Shown here: piece by piece, positions 1 to 6,827 of the stretch | How the letters are laid out: every line of letters begins with the position of its first letter | Numbering within the stretch: position 1 is the stretch's first letter | IMG/VR virus record: IMGVR_UViG_2695420540_000013 | Source of the DNA: a virus | Taxonomy: Duplodnaviria; Heunggongvirae; Uroviricota; Caudoviricetes | DNA length: 10,060 nucleotides | Strand: one strand, 5' to 3' | Made by a program: the position numbers and the translations under genes | Notes under the pieces: generated by a model | The model's input: only the letters and a program-made list of their open reading frames with translations | Told to the model about the DNA's origin: nothing | Database searches by the model: none

Positions 1-173
1 TGTCAGTTATCATCTTCGGTTACGGTTATCGGCAGAACGCCCTGCCGCTGACAAGAGCTTATTTGCCTGACCAATCTACTCCACATGATAGATAACTATC
101 ATTTATAGCATTTGGCTTATTAGCCTTTATTTTTCATTGAGTTGCAAACAATAAGCTCGTCAAAAACAGTAAA

Positions 174-230
174 ATTAACTACACCATTAACTACACCGTT
201 CCACGAACAATATCGAACAACCACGAACAA
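174..230. repeat. Tandem direct repeats: 2 x 12 bp ATTAACTACACC (174..185, 186..197) followed by 3 x 10 bp CCACGAACAA / TATCGAACAA / CCACGAACAA (201..230)
   Basis: Read directly from the sequence. Head-to-tail arrangement in non-coding DNA, typical of protein-binding arrays (recombinase arm sites, packaging or replication protein sites). Confidence 0.7.
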
Positions 231-570
231 AGATCAACACGCTTTAATCGTTATCATTTTCCGGCTATCAGTCATGAAACCAGTTATCGGCATCAGGCCC
301 ACCAGCGTGAAGCGTTTTTCATTTTTCGCGGGTATAAAAAATCGATGGGGCTGGCAGTCCGGAAGACGTCAGGGTACAGAGATTTGACCCGCCCCTCCCT
401 GTGCATGCGCACAATAAGTAACCGAAGGCGGAATTCCGCCCTCGGTACTCACATATGAGAAACGATATTTCTTCCACCGATACCCTTTATTTGGGTATCG
501 CGAGTAAGCCCCAAAATCTGGGTGTTACTCTTACTACCCAAACTACGGGTAGTTTCCGTAGTTTCATAGT

Positions 571-639: not shown

Positions 640-921
640 TTACCGCCGTAAGTGCTCCGGCTTCCTCCACTGGTAAGTATTTTTCGCGCTCTCCCTCCGT
701 TGTTGAGAACGGCGACGGTATGCCAGCAACTCAAGAACTCTGGTTCGTATGTTGCGCATATCCACGCCGTTAAGCTCAATACCGTCACGGCGCATTACCT
801 CATCCACCACACGCGCATAATTTTCAGCGGTCACGCTGTCCGGTTGCATGGCCTGTTCGTCAACCTGCTGGCTGATTCCGGCGACGCGGCGGATTAATCC
901 CAGTATTTCGGCTTCTGTCAT
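640..921 (-). CDS. Hypothetical phage-associated protein, 93 aa; function unknown (position downstream of capsid gene suggests a head-completion or packaging accessory role)
   Basis: ATG at 919..921 preceded by a GGGGG Shine-Dalgarno-like run about 4 nt upstream on the minus strand. Basic C-terminal tail. No family recognised. Confidence 0.5.
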   Translation of the reverse strand: MTEAEILGLIRRVAGISQQVDEQAMQPDSVTAENYARVVDEVMRRDGIELNGVDMRNIRTRVLELLAYRRRSQQRRESAKNTYQWRKPEHLRR

Positions 922-1179: not shown

Positions 1180-3060
1180 TCATGAAGAAATCGCTCTGAC
1201 CATTCCGCGATAATCCAGAGCAGCAACGCCAGCATCAATGCGGACCTTCCAGGCCACACCGTCAACAATAAAGCCCTCCTGCTGCTCAAGGTAAGGCTCG
1301 TCATTACCGTCAAGATAAGCCACCTCAATTGTGTCCGTTCCCTGTGCTGAAAGCATGTACCATTGCTTATCACTGACTTCATCAAGGCGGGGATCGACAA
1401 TAATATCCAGTTGTTTGTGGTACGGGTTATATGAACCACTGTTTGTATCGGCACCGAAAGGCGTGGTTGAGTTAACCATTTGCAACGCTCTGTCTTCCAG
1501 AGCCGCAGGAACAAGAAGGAATTTTGGCACAATATTCAGCACCTCACCGTTTTCATCCCTCTGTGTGCGCATTGCACGGCGTGCAATGCCAAGCCCTGTA
1601 GTGCTGACTCCGTTATCAATATCATTTCCGTGTTTTTTGCTGAACAGCGGTATACCGTCAGAAAGCTTTGTGTTTCCTGTCAGCACCAGATGAACCAGAT
1701 TACCCACCGTTCTGGCGGCTGCTCGCCCCATTGCCTGTGGGATAACTGTTAACTGATTCAGGTCATCGTTAATAATCGCCTGTCGGGTAATGCTGAAAAT
1801 ATTTCCGTAAGTTGCCAGCGCGATTGGTTCGCCACGGTCACTGGTGGTGATGTATTTATATTCCGCGCCTTCCGGCACTTTGTTTAATGTAGAGAAGCCA
1901 TTCAGGCCAACACGACGTGCCTCATGGAAGTTTGACAATGAACCTTTTTTCGTCCACTGGCGGAACGTTTCGCCGCTGTGTTCCCATCCGGCAAGCACGG
2001 ATTTTTCAGCACCACCAGCAAGGATATAAGTAAAATCGCTGCTGCTGTGGGTGAATGCCGCGTTTACTATCTGCGAGCGTGTGCTGTAGCTGCCTGTGCT
2101 TATGCCGCGATGGGTTAATGATGCCTGTGCCATATCGAAAAGGCTCATCATGGCGTAAGGGTTGCCGCGTTCTGCCTGTTCATGTCCCAGACGCGCATTA
2201 AGCCCCTGACGCATTGCATCGCCGGTTATGTTGCCGTTATCCGTGTACGCGTAGTAAAGATTTGCGGGGGTGGTTTTGTTTGTCGGTGTCGATTCTTTAC
2301 CCATAGTGAGTAAAAGGCGTTCGCGTGCATCCTCAACGCTACAGCCTGAATCAGCAAGACAACTTATAGCCAGGTCGTTATATCTTCCATTGAACGTGCC
2401 AAACAATTCACGTATCCCGTTGAGTCGTTCCTGTTCTCCGCTGCCAGTTTTCTGGCTGATCATGCTTTTAATATTTTCCGGCATATTCGAAAAATCTCCG
2501 ATTCGTTTTGATTCAATTCTGGCCATTGCTGTAATCGCGGGTATAACCTCATCTGCGAAGCCATTAGCCTTACACTCATTGCCATCCATCCAGGTTTCCG
2601 CCTCCATCATGGCGGTGATTTCCTGTTTGCTCCTGCCCGTTCTTCCGGCGTAGGTTTCCGCCATCGTGTCGCCCAGCTTGTCCATCAGGTCAGCAAAGCG
2701 GCGAACGTCGCCCGACACTCCGGCAGTAACACCACGGGGGGCATGTATCATCATCATCGCGTTTTCAGGCATAACGATGTGATCGCCACACATGGCAATA
2801 AACGAGGCCATAGAAGCCGCCATGCCTTCAATGTGTACAATTTTCTTTGCCGGATGATTTTTCAGGGCGTTATAGATAGCCAGCCCTTCAAAGATGTCGC
2901 CACCAGGTGAATGGATGCGAAGATGGATTTCAGGCACATTACCGCACGCGTTGATCTCGTCAGTAAGTGCCGATGCTTTTACACCGTACCCGCCGATCTC
3001 GTCATAAATGCGTACATGTACAACATCAGCCATAGCCTTAATGGAAAACCATGTTTTCAT
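1180..3060 (-). CDS. ClpP/S14-like prohead (head maturation) serine protease fused to an HK97-fold major capsid protein, 626 aa
   Basis: The N-terminal ~190 aa carry ClpP-family signatures: HSPGGDIFEGLAIYNAL (cf. ClpP INSPGG..IY), EGMAASMASF (cf. GQAASMG, catalytic Ser) and MMMIHAPRG (cf. MIHQPLGG, catalytic His). The C-terminal ~430 aa resemble phage major capsid proteins (assigned from context and general look, not from a specific motif). ATG at 3058..3060 with AGGAG 7 nt upstream; an in-frame ATG at 3031..3033 is an alternative start. Confidence 0.85.
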   Translation of the reverse strand: MKTWFSIKAMADVVHVRIYDEIGGYGVKASALTDEINACGNVPEIHLRIHSPGGDIFEGLAIYNALKNHPAKKIVHIEGMAASMASFIAMCGDHIVMPENAMMMIHAPRGVTAGVSGDVRRFADLMDKLGDTMAETYAGRTGRSKQEITAMMEAETWMDGNECKANGFADEVIPAITAMARIESKRIGDFSNMPENIKSMISQKTGSGEQERLNGIRELFGTFNGRYNDLAISCLADSGCSVEDARERLLLTMGKESTPTNKTTPANLYYAYTDNGNITGDAMRQGLNARLGHEQAERGNPYAMMSLFDMAQASLTHRGISTGSYSTRSQIVNAAFTHSSSDFTYILAGGAEKSVLAGWEHSGETFRQWTKKGSLSNFHEARRVGLNGFSTLNKVPEGAEYKYITTSDRGEPIALATYGNIFSITRQAIINDDLNQLTVIPQAMGRAAARTVGNLVHLVLTGNTKLSDGIPLFSKKHGNDIDNGVSTTGLGIARRAMRTQRDENGEVLNIVPKFLLVPAALEDRALQMVNSTTPFGADTNSGSYNPYHKQLDIIVDPRLDEVSDKQWYMLSAQGTDTIEVAYLDGNDEPYLEQQEGFIVDGVAWKVRIDAGVAALDYRGMVRAISS

Positions 3061-3354: not shown

Positions 3355-3432
3355 GTCATACCAGCAAAAGAATTGACTAATTATTGCCACGCCAGCACAA
3401 TTAAGACTCATCATTTCGGTAGTGGCAGTATC

Positions 3433-3496
3433 CTTTGTCGCTGACAAAGCGCCTCCGGTGGCACCATCGGGGCGCTTTTTTTTGCGCCTGTTTTTT
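3433..3496. terminator. Cluster of overlapping hairpins with U-tracts (terminator or attenuator-like), orientation ambiguous
   Basis: Hairpin CTTTGTC-gct-GACAAAG (3433..3449); GCGCC (3449..3453) pairs with GGCGC (3471..3475), followed by T8 (3476..3483); GGCGC (3471..3475) can alternatively pair with GCGCC (3484..3488), followed by T6 (3491..3496). Strong terminator shape on the plus strand, weaker on the minus. Directly abuts the masked block. Confidence 0.45.
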
Positions 3497-3498
3497 GT

Positions 3499-3749
3499 NN
3501 NNNNNNNNNNNNNNNNNNNNNNNNNNNNNNNNNNNNNNNNNNNNNNNNNNNNNNNNNNNNNNNNNNNNNNNNNNNNNNNNNNNNNNNNNNNNNNNNNNNN
3601 NNNNNNNNNNNNNNNNNNNNNNNNNNNNNNNNNNNNNNNNNNNNNNNNNNNNNNNCGNNNNNNNNNNNNNNNNNNNNNNNNNNNNNNNNNNNNNNNNNNN
3701 NNNNNNNNNNNNNNNNNNNNNNNNNNNNNNNNNNNNNNNNNNNNNNNNN
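3499..3749. other. N-masked / undetermined sequence block (251 nt, with an isolated CG at 3656..3657)
   Basis: Run of n characters; nothing inside can be interpreted. The six-frame ORFs crossing it (3401..3790, 3422..3880, 3435..4034) are artefacts of translating N. Confidence 0.99.
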
Positions 3750-3755
3750 CGTTGC

Positions 3756-4178
3756 TTAAAACGGTATGTTATCCCCGTACGGATCATCATTCCCCGCCTG
3801 TTGTTTGGCCCTGTTCAGTGCATCAGTGGCCTGCCCCTGTTGGCCTTTTTTACCGCCCGGTCGCGCCGTTCTGGCACTGATTACACTGTCTGCGATAACC
3901 TGCCAGCCCTGCCGCGTTTCTCCGTTCTGGCCTGTCCACTGGCTTACCTGCATGTTACCCGCCACGCTCACCAGCTCGCCTTTCTGGTGCTTTGCCAGTG
4001 CGTCAGCCTGTCTGCCAAACGCCAGGACGGATAACCATATCGTCGCCGTTCCGTCATCTGCCTGGCTGCACGGCAGGGGAACCGCCATACTCGCCATCGT
4101 CATTTGCGTACCCTTGCTGGTGGTCTTTAACTGCGGGTCAGCCACCAGCCGCCCGTAAGCCGCTATCTGTGCTGTCAT
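3756..4178 (-). CDS. ssb: Single-stranded DNA-binding protein (SSB), 140 aa
   Basis: N-terminal OB-fold-like region (AAYGRLVADPQLK ... WLSVLAFG ... GELVSVAGNMQVSQWTGQNGETRQ), a Gly/Gln-rich linker, and an acidic C-terminal tail ending DDPYGDNIPF (cf. E. coli SSB DDDIPF). Start ATG at 4176..4178 overlaps the upstream gene stop (ATGA). Confidence 0.85.
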   Translation of the reverse strand: MTAQIAAYGRLVADPQLKTTSKGTQMTMASMAVPLPCSQADDGTATIWLSVLAFGRQADALAKHQKGELVSVAGNMQVSQWTGQNGETRQGWQVIADSVISARTARPGGKKGQQGQATDALNRAKQQAGNDDPYGDNIPF

Positions 4179-4420
4179 GCTGTCTGCTCTCCGGTTTTAA
4201 CGTTGATGGTTGTCACCTGTTCCGCTTCGGCAATCTCCCGTTCTGTCAGCGTGGCAAAGTTTGCCGCCGTCGTGGTCATGAATGCGCTTATCAGTTCGGG
4301 ATGTGCTTTCGCGTATCCTTCCCCGGCGTTGCGGTCGATGATTTTTATCGCCACCCTCAGCCAGTGTTCTGTCAAATCAAGGGCGTGAGATTGTGGTTTT
4401 TTGGCGTGCTTCGTTGTCAC
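4175..4420 (-). CDS. Hypothetical protein, 81 aa, GTG start; translationally coupled to ssb
   Basis: First codon is GTG (complement of 4418..4420) with a GAGGT Shine-Dalgarno 7 nt upstream. No family recognised. Confidence 0.5.
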   Translation of the reverse strand: MTTKHAKKPQSHALDLTEHWLRVAIKIIDRNAGEGYAKAHPELISAFMTTTAANFATLTEREIAEAEQVTTINVKTGEQTA

Positions 4421-4472
4421 AGGCTTTACCTCACAGCAATAAAATAAAATTTTTGCATTTTAACCCTTCACC

Positions 4473-4693
4473 TGTTCACCTTTTGCAATTTTCCCTTTTT
4501 ATTCATGATGTTAATGGGTTAACAGTTTCACAAAAACTATTCACCAACTGTTCACCACTGTTCACCCTTAAAGCTCAATAAAGAATCAAAAAGGTGAACA
4601 GTGAATAGTTTGGTGAACAGTTCATAAATAACTGTTCACCCTATAATATACTGATATAAAAGACATTTATTGCAGGGTGAACAGTGGTGAACA
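4473..4693. repeat. Iteron cluster, putative P4-type origin of replication (ori/crr-like): 8 perfect TGTTCACC/GGTGAACA octamers plus degenerate copies
   Basis: TGTTCACC at 4473, 4549, 4559, 4633; reverse complement GGTGAACA at 4593, 4612, 4676, 4686; variants TATTCACC (4538) and GTGAATAG (4601). An AT-rich stretch CTATAATATACTGATATAAAAG (4641..4662) sits inside. Located just downstream of the primase gene. TGTTCACC is the octamer I recall as the P4 alpha-protein binding iteron in ori and crr. Confidence 0.75.
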
Positions 4694-4734
4694 GTTATTC
4701 CATAAGTTTAATTTTTTCCATCGTCATTTGTGAC

Positions 4735-6525
4735 CTATGCACATGATGGCATCCAGTCTTCTGAATCCTCTGTCAGGGTCACATTTGAACGCAAACCGTG
4801 CTTCGTTTTCCGTTTCATATACTCCCTGCCATATTCCGCCATTGCCCCCGGCATATCTTTACCGAAGCGCGTCAGTGTTACAGGTTTACCGAATCCGTGT
4901 GCCCTCATATATGCCAGATAGGCGTGATAAAGATACCTGCGCGGACTGAACGGAATAATTTCGGCATTACCCACTAACAGACCATCACACATTACCGACG
5001 ACATGAGATAGCCGCAGAAGTCCACCAGCGAATCGCCCTCGCGTTTTATCACCAGAGCTTCTTCTGATTTCTGCTGCTCATACAGCAGGCGTTTAGCTTC
5101 GTCCTGGTCAGAAAAACGAGTAAGCAGGTGGCGAATCACAACCGCCAGCTCTCCTTCTATTTTTTCTGCCAGCATGGGGTCGCGTTCGTTCTCCGGTACA
5201 ACTTCCGAAAAATTGAATATCACCCGACGACGTGAGATCCCCCCGCTGCGGTCACTGAATGACATGGCGTTATTGTTAACCGCCAGCACTACTGCCGGAA
5301 TACGCGTTGAGTAGGGGGCTTTGTGTTTCGGGTCAATTGCCACCTTGTCACCGCCTGTAATGGCCTTAATCCCTGCCCCATCACCAGCGTAGCGGGTCAT
5401 ATCCGGCATGATAATCAGCGAAAAGCCAACCACTAACGCGCGTTCCCTTGCATCTTCCAGCGCCTTCATGCTTGCCGATACTGTGTTGGCCTTACCCGCC
5501 AGCATGGTGCAAATCTCCGCCATCACGCTTTTACCACTTCCCCCTGGACCTGTTACCTCAATGAATAACTGCCAGTCGTACCGGTTCGCCAGCACCATGA
5601 ATAATACAGCCAGTACGCGATCCGCCTTGCGGTCATTCTCAGCCACCGAACGGCGTAACCACTTCCAGAAATTCGGCGCATGTGTTGCCAGCGTTTCCCC
5701 CTCTGCTGGTGGGCTGAAAGGTAATTCACTGGCAATTAACAACCAGTCGTTTTTGTTATGCTCCCGAAAATTACCTGTTCTGGTATCAAATACCCCGTTA
5801 CTGAATCCAATCAGGTTACGGGCTGTATTCCCCATTACAGGCAAACTTAACTTCATGGTATCGACCGCCGATTTAATGGCGTTCTGCGAATAGCTGATCT
5901 CCGCATCAATGAAAATCTGTGCCATAGCTCGCTGTAATTCTTTATCCTGTACTGGCTCCCATACAACGCCGTTGTAATGGTGAACAGTGTCAGAGTCAGC
6001 ATGAATCGCCAGTTCACCGCCATAATGTGCCAGGAGAACTTCGCCGCGTTGACTTGCTCCCATCTGGTTAAGCGCCAGTGATGAAGCGTTATCGTCTTTT
6101 ACCCGCTCTTTTTTCTTTACAGGCAGTTCAACTACCTTTTTCTTTTCCGCCTGCTCTGCCCGTTCACGTTCCAGATATTCGCGCCAGTTCTCCCGTTTCT
6201 GGCTGTGCATTCCTTCAGGGTAATAATCAGCATCCCTGACACCTGCCACTGCCAGTTTCTGCCCGATGGTATTAACAAGCCCCGGACGCAATAACCCCGC
6301 CTGATAGAGACGCACGCGATAGCGTCCGTCCGGTACGATTTGCAGGTTGTCCAGTTCGGCAAGTTGTTGCTCTCCAAGCCAGACAGGTGGCACGTTATCG
6401 CCAGCCAGTCGCCCGTCCTGTTCCTGCCACTGTTTCGCATGTGCCCACGCATCACTACCCGCAAAAATGATGACTTCCGTCATTTTGTCACGCGGCTGGT
6501 GTTTTAAATTTGGCGCTTTTTTCAT
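4735..6525 (-). CDS. P4 alpha-like replication primase/helicase (N-terminal primase region, Walker-A P-loop NTPase), 596 aa from the preferred start
   Basis: Walker A GPGGSGKS; overall resemblance to the phage/plasmid primase P4-family C-terminal domain. Preferred ATG at 6523..6525 has a GGAGAGA Shine-Dalgarno and forms an ATGA overlap with the upstream gene stop; the ORF track's longer start (6540) and a shorter one (6483) lack an RBS. Confidence 0.88.
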   Translation of the reverse strand: MKKAPNLKHQPRDKMTEVIIFAGSDAWAHAKQWQEQDGRLAGDNVPPVWLGEQQLAELDNLQIVPDGRYRVRLYQAGLLRPGLVNTIGQKLAVAGVRDADYYPEGMHSQKRENWREYLERERAEQAEKKKVVELPVKKKERVKDDNASSLALNQMGASQRGEVLLAHYGGELAIHADSDTVHHYNGVVWEPVQDKELQRAMAQIFIDAEISYSQNAIKSAVDTMKLSLPVMGNTARNLIGFSNGVFDTRTGNFREHNKNDWLLIASELPFSPPAEGETLATHAPNFWKWLRRSVAENDRKADRVLAVLFMVLANRYDWQLFIEVTGPGGSGKSVMAEICTMLAGKANTVSASMKALEDARERALVVGFSLIIMPDMTRYAGDGAGIKAITGGDKVAIDPKHKAPYSTRIPAVVLAVNNNAMSFSDRSGGISRRRVIFNFSEVVPENERDPMLAEKIEGELAVVIRHLLTRFSDQDEAKRLLYEQQKSEEALVIKREGDSLVDFCGYLMSSVMCDGLLVGNAEIIPFSPRRYLYHAYLAYMRAHGFGKPVTLTRFGKDMPGAMAEYGREYMKRKTKHGLRSNVTLTEDSEDWMPSCA

Positions 6526-6821
6526 TTCTGCTCTCTCCACGCGGCAATCATGTTTTTTAGTTCCTGTAGTTTTTTATCAACATCCATACATGACACATGG
6601 TTATTTCTGGAAAGCGGGATTTCCCGACTGAATCTGCTAATAAAGATCTCCACGTTCAGCGAACTAAGAAATGAATAGCCATCACGGATAAAATACACAC
6701 GGTCAAACATCAGTTCTTTTACCGTTACTCTGTTACCGTTCTTATCCAGATAAATAGCGCCGGGGATAATTTGGGGGTGTGCATAACCGCTGGCAGTCAA
6801 GCCAGATAAATACGTTCTCAT
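6522..6821 (-). CDS. Hypothetical protein, 99 aa (second gene of a low-GC two-gene cassette)
   Basis: ATG at 6819..6821 with GGGGA upstream; stop overlaps the primase start. Sampled 60-nt windows here give about 35-43% GC versus about 52% in the primase gene. No family recognised. Confidence 0.55.
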   Translation of the reverse strand: MRTYLSGLTASGYAHPQIIPGAIYLDKNGNRVTVKELMFDRVYFIRDGYSFLSSLNVEIFISRFSREIPLSRNNHVSCMDVDKKLQELKNMIAAWREQK

Positions 6822-6827
6822 GATTAT

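Follow-up and report, generated by a model that had tools for sequence, protein, structure and literature searches.

A tandem-repeat array at the int-distal end of an Escherichia coli phage satellite as a probable arm of its attachment site

In the lambda intasome, arm-type sites (P1, P2 and P'1-P'3) are combined with excisionase sites (Xis X1-X2) and with IHF sites, and those of the excisionase lie on one arm only. In Gram-negative PICIs, the master activator is AlpA, which is induced by the helper phage. Among the described systems closest to the locus studied here is satellite phage P4, whose record annotates a 12-bp 'attP arm sequence repeat' as two co-oriented tandem pairs (NC_001609; Pierson and Kahn 1987). 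The proximal pair (3942-3965) occupies the interval 16-39 bp from the int ATG, its distance from the 20-bp core being 112 bp, and the distal pair (4151-4174) is 54 bp past the core (NC_001609). The P4 genome also contains, after the proximal pair, a triplet of short units in 10-bp phase (GGACAA/GGAAGA/GGACGA), the only such cluster we found in it; near the P4 late promoter, P4-type short units form no cluster.

Doubled motifs were also described in helper-embedded PICIs (HE-PICIs), where tgTGTATTGCantgTGTATTGCa, that is TGTATTGC x2 at a 12-bp period, occurs twice in the same orientation, at 81 and 132 bp from the centre of attP (PMC10111431). Binding of its four half-sites by an Int tetramer, through the arm domains, was proposed, with AlpA as the alternative binder, and the motif was reported to be absent from other PICIs (PMC10111431). 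In KplE1/CPS-53, which uses IntS and TorI, the int promoter was shown experimentally to overlap the attL arm sites (PMC2951348), and in both P4 and KplE1 the proximal sites overlap the int control region (PMC7286903; PMC2951348). Here, we analyse a tandem-repeat array in a window of 10,060 nucleotides, the whole stretch of DNA available for this element, and compare it with these systems.

The island and the array at its boundary

We assign the element in the window to the PICI/cfPICI-type phage satellites. All the listed island genes are on the minus strand: int, alpA, a DUF4222 gene, and those encoding a D5-type primase, an SSB, a protease/capsid fusion and a 93-residue protein. The int gene (8822-10060, minus strand) encodes a 412-aa tyrosine integrase of the P4 family (PF13356, PF22022, PF00589), which aligns end to end with P4 Int at 24% identity. 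Its N-terminal arm-DNA-binding domain, Arm-DNA-bind_3 (PF13356, E = 1.2e-16, residues 8-95), matches the solved N-domains of CP4-like integrases (PDB 3JTZ/3RMP and 3JU0). The alpA gene (8193-8402, minus strand) encodes a 69-aa protein of the Phage_AlpA family (PF05930, E = 3.8e-16), which is 43% identical to the P4 excisionase Vis (BLASTP, E = 4e-19) and has the PHROG annotation 'excisionase and transcriptional regulator'. Just downstream of the primase gene (4735-6540, minus strand) is a probable replication origin (4473-4693), where TGTTCACC, known from P4 as the 'ori type 1' iteron, occurs nine times, in both orientations.

The late genes are few. The only recognisable head gene of the window island encodes a ClpP-like prohead protease/HK97-type major-capsid fusion of 626 residues (1180-3060, minus strand), whereas sister islands at the same site have full head and terminase sets. 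CLP_protease genes of this type are themselves targeted by helper-embedded PICIs (PMC10111431). The gene of the 93-residue protein (640-921, minus strand; phrog_1561, no Pfam family) is conserved in all related islands, irrespective of their late module, as the last one beside the int-distal arm, and its product could be another DNA-binding or packaging factor. A terminator-like hairpin with an 11-bp GC-rich stem (421-446, minus strand) follows this last gene and sets the leftward late operon apart from the att arm. At 3499-3749, 249 N interrupted by 'cg' at 3656-3657 mark a masked or gap stretch, which inflates naive repeat counts; we left it out of the repeat counts and shuffle statistics, and rejected as artefacts the ORFs that span it (3401-3790, 3422-3880 and 3435-4034).

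The window starts directly after the clpS start codon, and its positions 1-102 are host chromosome from the region upstream of clpS, including part of yljB (megablast and alignment with the empty site of K-12). Positions 1-106 are present at ~99% identity in 5425 of 5426 complete E. coli genomes, and homology with the empty K-12 site ends after position 102, whereas the segment with the array (150-290) is found in only 206 of the 5426. The array is thus island DNA, 72-137 bp inside the int-distal junction. These alignments place the insertion between clpS and yljB/cspD of E. coli. The putative att core is the identity block TGATAGATAACTATCAT at 86-102 (plus strand), of which ATAACTATCAT at 92-102 is perfect, and the boundary of the island is at 102/103. 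Both junctions have TGATA(G/A)ATAACTATCAT in common; in three relatives (L001, L004 and L016), TGATAAATAACTATCAT stands at the int-proximal junction, directly before yljB. The predicted crossover falls inside the perfect block at 92-102.

The original prediction, made from the letters of the window, had suggested that the repeats may lie near the left boundary of an island, had proposed to locate it by comparison with an empty site, and would have yielded to the finding of the repeats in conserved host DNA. The empty K-12 site indeed puts the boundary after position 102; host DNA ends at ~102-106 and the array starts at 174, in a segment that most E. coli genomes lack. With the array, the int-distal limit of a satellite island common in E. 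coli can be set exactly, at 102/103. Strain 7-58 72A has a second integrase-bearing island across clpA (L001 1-9000, with YfjI/DUF3987, an IS1 and the remnant of a TOTE system), which makes the clpA/clpS neighbourhood of that strain the place of two separate insertions.

The array itself consists of two classes of repeats. It starts with a tandem pair of 12-mers, ATTAACTACACC x2, head to tail (174-197, plus strand; TRF period 12, 2.0 copies, 100% match), separated by GTT from three 10-mers, CCACGAACAA / TATCGAACAA / CCACGAACAA (201-230, plus strand). The motif CGAACAA begins at 204, 214 and 224 (204-210, 214-220, 224-230), hence with a 10-bp phase, or one helical turn. Direct reading and TRF confirm the coordinates that had been given for the 12-mer pair and the three CGAACAA units (174-230), and a degenerate fourth unit, AGATCAACA (231-239, plus strand), which directly follows them, extends the array ~9 bp further right. 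The window has only three exact tandem duplications of 10-14-bp units, namely this pair and the tandems of origin iterons at 4547 and 4676, and the CGAACAA set is its sole 7-mer tripled at a 10-bp phase. Dinucleotide-preserving shuffles produced any such tandem in 9 of 500 cases and such a triplet in none of 500. The 8-mer ACTACACC has no copy in the window outside the 12-mer pair.

Conservation is equally uneven. In 16 distinct distal arms of the clpS type, none of the 24 columns of the 12-mer pair varies and 3 of the 39 columns of the 10-mers do, whereas the proportion of variable columns is 61% in the adjacent spacer, which separates the pair from the core, and ~99% past position 300. These near-invariant columns amid variable flanks indicate that pair and 10-mers are under selection: the array at 174-239 is a real, selected feature and not a product of chance. 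The alignment of the same arms shows a moderately conserved tail of this end module at 240-295. Past ~295, islands at the same site are unrelated to one another in the noncoding DNA that precedes the last gene (240-640), where there are also large indels, and positions 285-420 of the window have separate matches elsewhere; the stretch beyond ~295 looks like a putative recombination hot spot or mosaic joint. Between core and pair, the variable spacer (103-173, 70% A+T) is the expected place of an IHF-type bend site. A perfect IHF consensus occupies the equivalent position in islands of the phoQ, allC and tqsA types and a one-mismatch version does so in L001; the distal spacer of the window contains no IHF consensus at up to one mismatch.

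The second arm and related islands

The window ends at the int start codon, and the int-proximal arm of its own island is thus unreadable. We infer this arm from L004, whose Int is 99.8% identical and whose DNA is 98% identical over 3750-10060; L001 is a close relative with 92% DNA identity. In both, ATTAACTACACC ATTGACTACACC begins 23 bp from the int ATG and is followed by GCGAAC / ACGAACAAGG / GCGAACAAG, an A/T-rich stretch, two more units (ACGAACACCCACGAACAC), CACTAACTGATAAATAACTATCAT and yljB. The pair NNTRACTACACC x2 is present on both arms in L001, L004, L002 with L016, L017, L018, L019, L020 and the Shigella islands L005/L013, always co-oriented, 68-75 bp past the core on the distal arm and 23 bp from the int ATG on the proximal one. 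In these islands ACTACACC is essentially confined to the arm pairs, with a single stray copy in L004. The original prediction had called for a search for the same repeats near the int-proximal end, and they are there in every related island that can be read past int.

These islands occupy several chromosomal locations. A distant search with the int N-terminal region and the arm, combined with a pattern scan, revealed further insertion sites at phoQ/roxA (L017 and the Shigella islands L005/L013), allC/allE (L018), tqsA (L019, L020) and rcnR (L022). The tandem pair is on both arms, at the same distances, at the clpS, phoQ, allC and tqsA sites; at rcnR, L022 was read on the proximal arm only. A search for related loci by Int alignment returned only relatives at least 76% identical, most of them ending at the int start codon, and no new lineage. 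When we scanned one genome per species with the 20-mer ACTACACCATTRACTACACC, related matches came only from Shigella (both arms) and Phytobacter (one arm, at fis); we attribute the eight others, which come from unrelated phyla, to chance or to tandem repeats of another kind. In Phytobacter massiliensis, an island downstream of fis (L007) has AATGACTACACC ATTGACTACACC at a distance of 71 bp from the fis identity block. Outside E. coli, arm motifs of the ACTACACC type are thus used at the fis site as well, whereas the fis-type element LR881103 has TGTTTATACA.

The conservation of the end module is independent of what the islands carry in their late region. The protease/capsid fusion stands alone in the window, L001 and L004; L002, L017 and L018 have a complete HK97-type head and terminase set with HNH, and L019 and L020 a lambda-like capsid with a decoration protein. 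L002 is identical to the window over 1-420 and differs in the rest. The two tandem 12-mer pairs, co-oriented and each at a fixed distance from the core, form a compact signature by which the limits of related PICI/cfPICI islands can be set and their integrase clade identified, whatever the late module. Neither the ACTACACC motif nor any arm sites of this integrase clade are described in the PICI and cfPICI papers that we consulted, and the 8-mer returned only primer noise in full-text searches.

Since the identity block is common to both junctions, the order of elements in the circular form can be predicted. After excision, attP would read int, 23 bp, pair, short units, ~60 bp, two units, core, ~70 bp, pair and three units. 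The two co-oriented pairs are ~130 and ~88 bp from the crossover centre. A search of viral contigs with the ACTACACCATTRACTACACC pattern for a contiguous attP of this clade (pairs ~220 bp apart) found none, all of the 56 loci being integrated; a contiguous attP was available only from the outgroup LR881103 (L021). This 16.5-kb induced element, recorded in its excised form, has an Int 48% identical to that of the window and a fis-type core. It has TGTTTATACA x2 at two places 233 bp apart in the contiguous attP, one of which ends 17 bp from the int ATG.

One further motif deserves mention. On the island side of the int-proximal core, CACTAANTGA(T/G)AAA abuts the site-specific core at all five insertion sites (L001 22243-22262; L017 18650-18670; also L018, L019 and L022). 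It is probably a conserved core-type half-site for Int, with variable, target-specific bases beyond it.

Candidate readers of the two repeat classes

The repeats are inside the element and outside its core, within ~150 bp of the crossover; the integrase has a separate N-terminal arm-DNA-binding domain, and in relatives the motif is on both arms. It is conserved relative to its flanks and changes together with the Int arm domain, a pattern drawn from few independent lineages. Given this position, geometry and covariation, the array most probably is the int-distal arm of the att site (attR, or the 'P arm' of lambda terminology, when integrated; one arm of attP when circular) of a heterobivalent integrase of the P4 family, to which we give a probability of roughly 0.88. 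The more general statement, that it is a recombination module in an att arm, can be made with great confidence. The possibility of integrase arm sites near an element end, raised among several in the original prediction, is the one that these observations uphold.

Under this reading, each 12-mer would dock one N-terminal arm-binding domain of Int, and the two co-oriented pairs would give four arm sites to an Int tetramer whose catalytic domains would sit on the core ~88 and ~130 bp away, with the A/T-rich spacers supplying the bend. The CGAACAA units would most likely be bound head to tail by the winged-helix protein of the AlpA/Vis type, which could shape the arms and set the direction of the reaction towards excision after induction by a helper phage. 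By analogy with P4 and KplE1, the proximal sites of window-type islands should overlap, by their position, the int control region, and their overlap with the int leader or promoter would probably also contribute to int autoregulation. A promoter scan of the proximal arm detected no convincing sigma-70 promoter.

Which protein reads which repeat is suggested by how the motifs covary with the two proteins. The 12-mer tracks that part of the Int arm domain which corresponds, in alignment with the solved N-domains of CP4-like integrases, to the beta1-turn-beta2 region. The strand RHSTSGL (NLSVRHSTSGLL) occurs with ATT(A/G)ACTACACC in the clpS, phoQ and allC types, KYLTSGK (NLSVKYLTSGKL) with AGTGACTACACC in the tqsA type, and GLEIKHSKGGK (GLEIKHSKGGKL) with AACTGACCACAC in the rcnR type. 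The short units track the recognition-helix region of AlpA: islands of the clpS and rcnR types combine the helix RTTRYELEKKG with C(G/A)AACA, those of the phoQ, allC and tqsA types combine R(S/T)CRYRLEK(A/T)G with G(A/G)AACA, and the fis-type outgroup has SRSSRWKMEQQG together with (T/A)AAACA and one GGAACA. Neither pairing had an exception in 23 proximal arms. Between the clpS and phoQ types, AlpA and units change while Int strand and 12-mer remain; between the clpS and rcnR types, Int strand and 12-mer change while AlpA and units remain. Yet other 12-mers are found in the outgroups L021 and P4. Because the two pairings assort independently, we assign the pair to Int, as arm-type sites, and the 10-mers to AlpA, as sites of an excisionase and activator. 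We consider this division of roles somewhat better than an even bet, and place it no higher because the covariation involves only about three variants of Int and about three of AlpA, which makes the observations non-independent.

Winged-helix RDFs bind head to tail, about one DNA turn apart (PMC11963761), and in EcCICFT073 both excision and replication require AlpA, which also activates its own promoter (PMC6092414); that it did not control the int promoter there counts against the assignment (PMC6092414). In the islands analysed here, AlpA is encoded by the element, direct repeats spaced by about one turn lie in the att arm, and the repeats covary with its helix among few independent lineages. 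Confinement to one arm, a feature that is not universal among RDF systems, is absent, as the units are found on both arms and beside the core. A further point for the assignment is a third phased array, of the same kind of unit, which type-2 islands have upstream of alpA, between this gene and the int stop codon, and which is made of five to six NRAACAA-type units (about 17170-17230 in L017 and the equivalent in L018-L020; CGAACAA, GGAACA, GCAACAA, GCAACAA and others on the alpA strand). The spacer of the type-1 window (8403-8821) has one clear unit only, at 8525.

These patterns lead us to a more specific proposal, which remains tentative and to which we would give slightly less than even odds: the two repeat classes would be read by two proteins, the 10-bp-phased NRAACA units on both arms and beside the core being AlpA sites, through which AlpA would directly license excision via attL/attR, with a specificity that the initial bases of the unit (C-, G- or A/T-type) would re-tune from one island lineage to another. 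If so, the question raised for HE-PICIs, of whether the Int arm domain or AlpA binds the motif, would be settled by each protein having a motif of its own. The natural variants of Int and AlpA, mixed and matched among these islands, offer a cheap test of which protein reads which motif in PICIs, a point left open in 2023 (PMC10111431).

The best of the alternatives retains the att-arm module and swaps the roles: the 12-mers would be bound by AlpA or by another protein of the island or host, and the CGAACAA-type units would be the arm-type sites of Int. Three ~10-bp direct repeats on one arm do resemble P'1-P'3 of lambda, and Int could track the short units, as its N-terminal 30 residues differ between the clpS type and the others; besides, the choice between Int arm domains and AlpA as binder of the doubled motif was left open for HE-PICIs (PMC10111431). 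Yet, the 12-mer changes with the beta1-beta2 strand of Int (tqsA, rcnR) and stays where only AlpA changes (clpS vs phoQ and allC), while the short units do the opposite. The equivalent tandem 12-mers of P4 are annotated as arm repeats, and two pairs provide four sites, which fits an Int tetramer. The swap is thus unlikely, and we keep the assignment of the 12-mers to Int and of the short units to AlpA.

The remaining explanations place the array outside recombination. The CGAACAA units might be crr-like iterons bound by the primase/helicase of the island, ~4.3 kb from the origin as in the case of P4 crr, which lies just beyond the distal arm repeats of P4; the origin iteron read on the other strand (GGTGAACA) has GAACA in common with the units. 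However, the true iterons, the nine TGTTCACC downstream of the primase, follow the primase type: they occur only in islands with the primase of the window (the window, L001, L004 and L018) and are absent from L017, L019 and L020, which nevertheless keep the arm module. L018 combines the iterons of the window with GAAACA/GGAACA arm units, and the units are also on the int-proximal arm and beside the core. A role in replication or partition, another of the options first put forward, is thus very improbable, as the array follows neither the primase nor the origin iterons.

Recognition of the array by the small terminase, as a cos/pac site that closes the late operon, was also among the options first considered, and we regard it as equally remote. 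In its favour are the location of the array, in noncoding DNA past the last late gene, and the fact that every cfPICI needs a packaging site at some place (bioRxiv 10.1101/2022.09.08.507074). Against this, the packaging module differs between islands that have the array: the identical end module accompanies three unrelated late modules, and the window island has no terminase genes where L002 has TerS/TerL/HNH. Furthermore, a second copy lies immediately upstream of int, and P4 has the same arrangement with its cos elsewhere. If the cfPICI relatives have a cos site, it may be in the 240-640 stretch.

Finally, that the array has no function, as a chance or slippage repeat or as part of a coding or RNA gene, has a negligible likelihood, since an 81-codon ORF with a TTG start (142-387, plus strand) does overlap it but the shuffle statistics, the perfect conservation amid variable flanks and the duplication on both arms all contradict this view. 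As a coding sequence, the ORF was discarded: it has no Pfam match, and its downstream part, with indels and unrelated sequence, cannot be aligned between islands. Likewise rejected was a structured RNA or DNA hairpin at the array (no Rfam match, no significant fold).

Comparison with described recombination systems

If the array is the int-distal arm of att, as we propose, its organisation can be compared with that of characterised systems. Like lambda, the island would use a heterobivalent Int with arm sites on both sides of the core, phased accessory sites and A/T-rich, bendable spacers. It differs from lambda in having two tandem pairs instead of 2+3 sites and putative RDF units on both arms and beside the core. 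The putative position of the int promoter is within the arm, an arrangement also seen in KplE1 and P4 (PMC2951348), and differs from that in lambda, upstream of xis. With KplE1 it shares an int gene that adjoins the att arm and arm-type and RDF sites that overlap the int regulatory region, an arrangement that predicts negative autoregulation of int. The two differ in that TorI belongs to another RDF family and that autoregulation is here suggested by position only.

The resemblance to HE-PICIs includes an integrase of a PICI clade and a doubled motif with a 12-bp period in two co-oriented copies, 81 and 132 bp from the attP centre there and ~88 and ~130 bp from the crossover centre here. The sequence of the motif and the clade of the integrase differ, and here there is a second class of repeats with a separate covariation.

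The similarity with P4 is the most extensive. Both elements have integrases of the same family with the same arm-binding domain and encode a protein of the AlpA/Vis family. The proximal pair is 16-39 bp from the int ATG in P4 and 23-46 bp here, ~110 bp from the core, and the distal pair is ~54 bp past the core in P4 and ~70 bp here. In both, a 10-bp-phased triplet of short units follows the proximal pair. The repeats themselves are unrelated (TTGGGGGCAT in P4 and GGTGTAGTTAAT here, on the int strand), and the window island occupies an intergenic site, whereas P4 inserts in a tRNA-Leu gene. In addition to its pairs, P4 has single arm repeats, and on its distal arm no triplet of short units is evident. 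Its crr adjoins the distal arm, in contrast to the origin of the window island, 4.3 kb away.

The array would thus be an expected part of a recombination module of the P4 type, a known kind of site. The occurrence of doubled repeats in P4, HE-PICIs and LR881103 makes this architecture a recurrent one in this integrase family, and we interpret the window as a further, clade-specific version of this recurrent architecture of tandem arm repeats.
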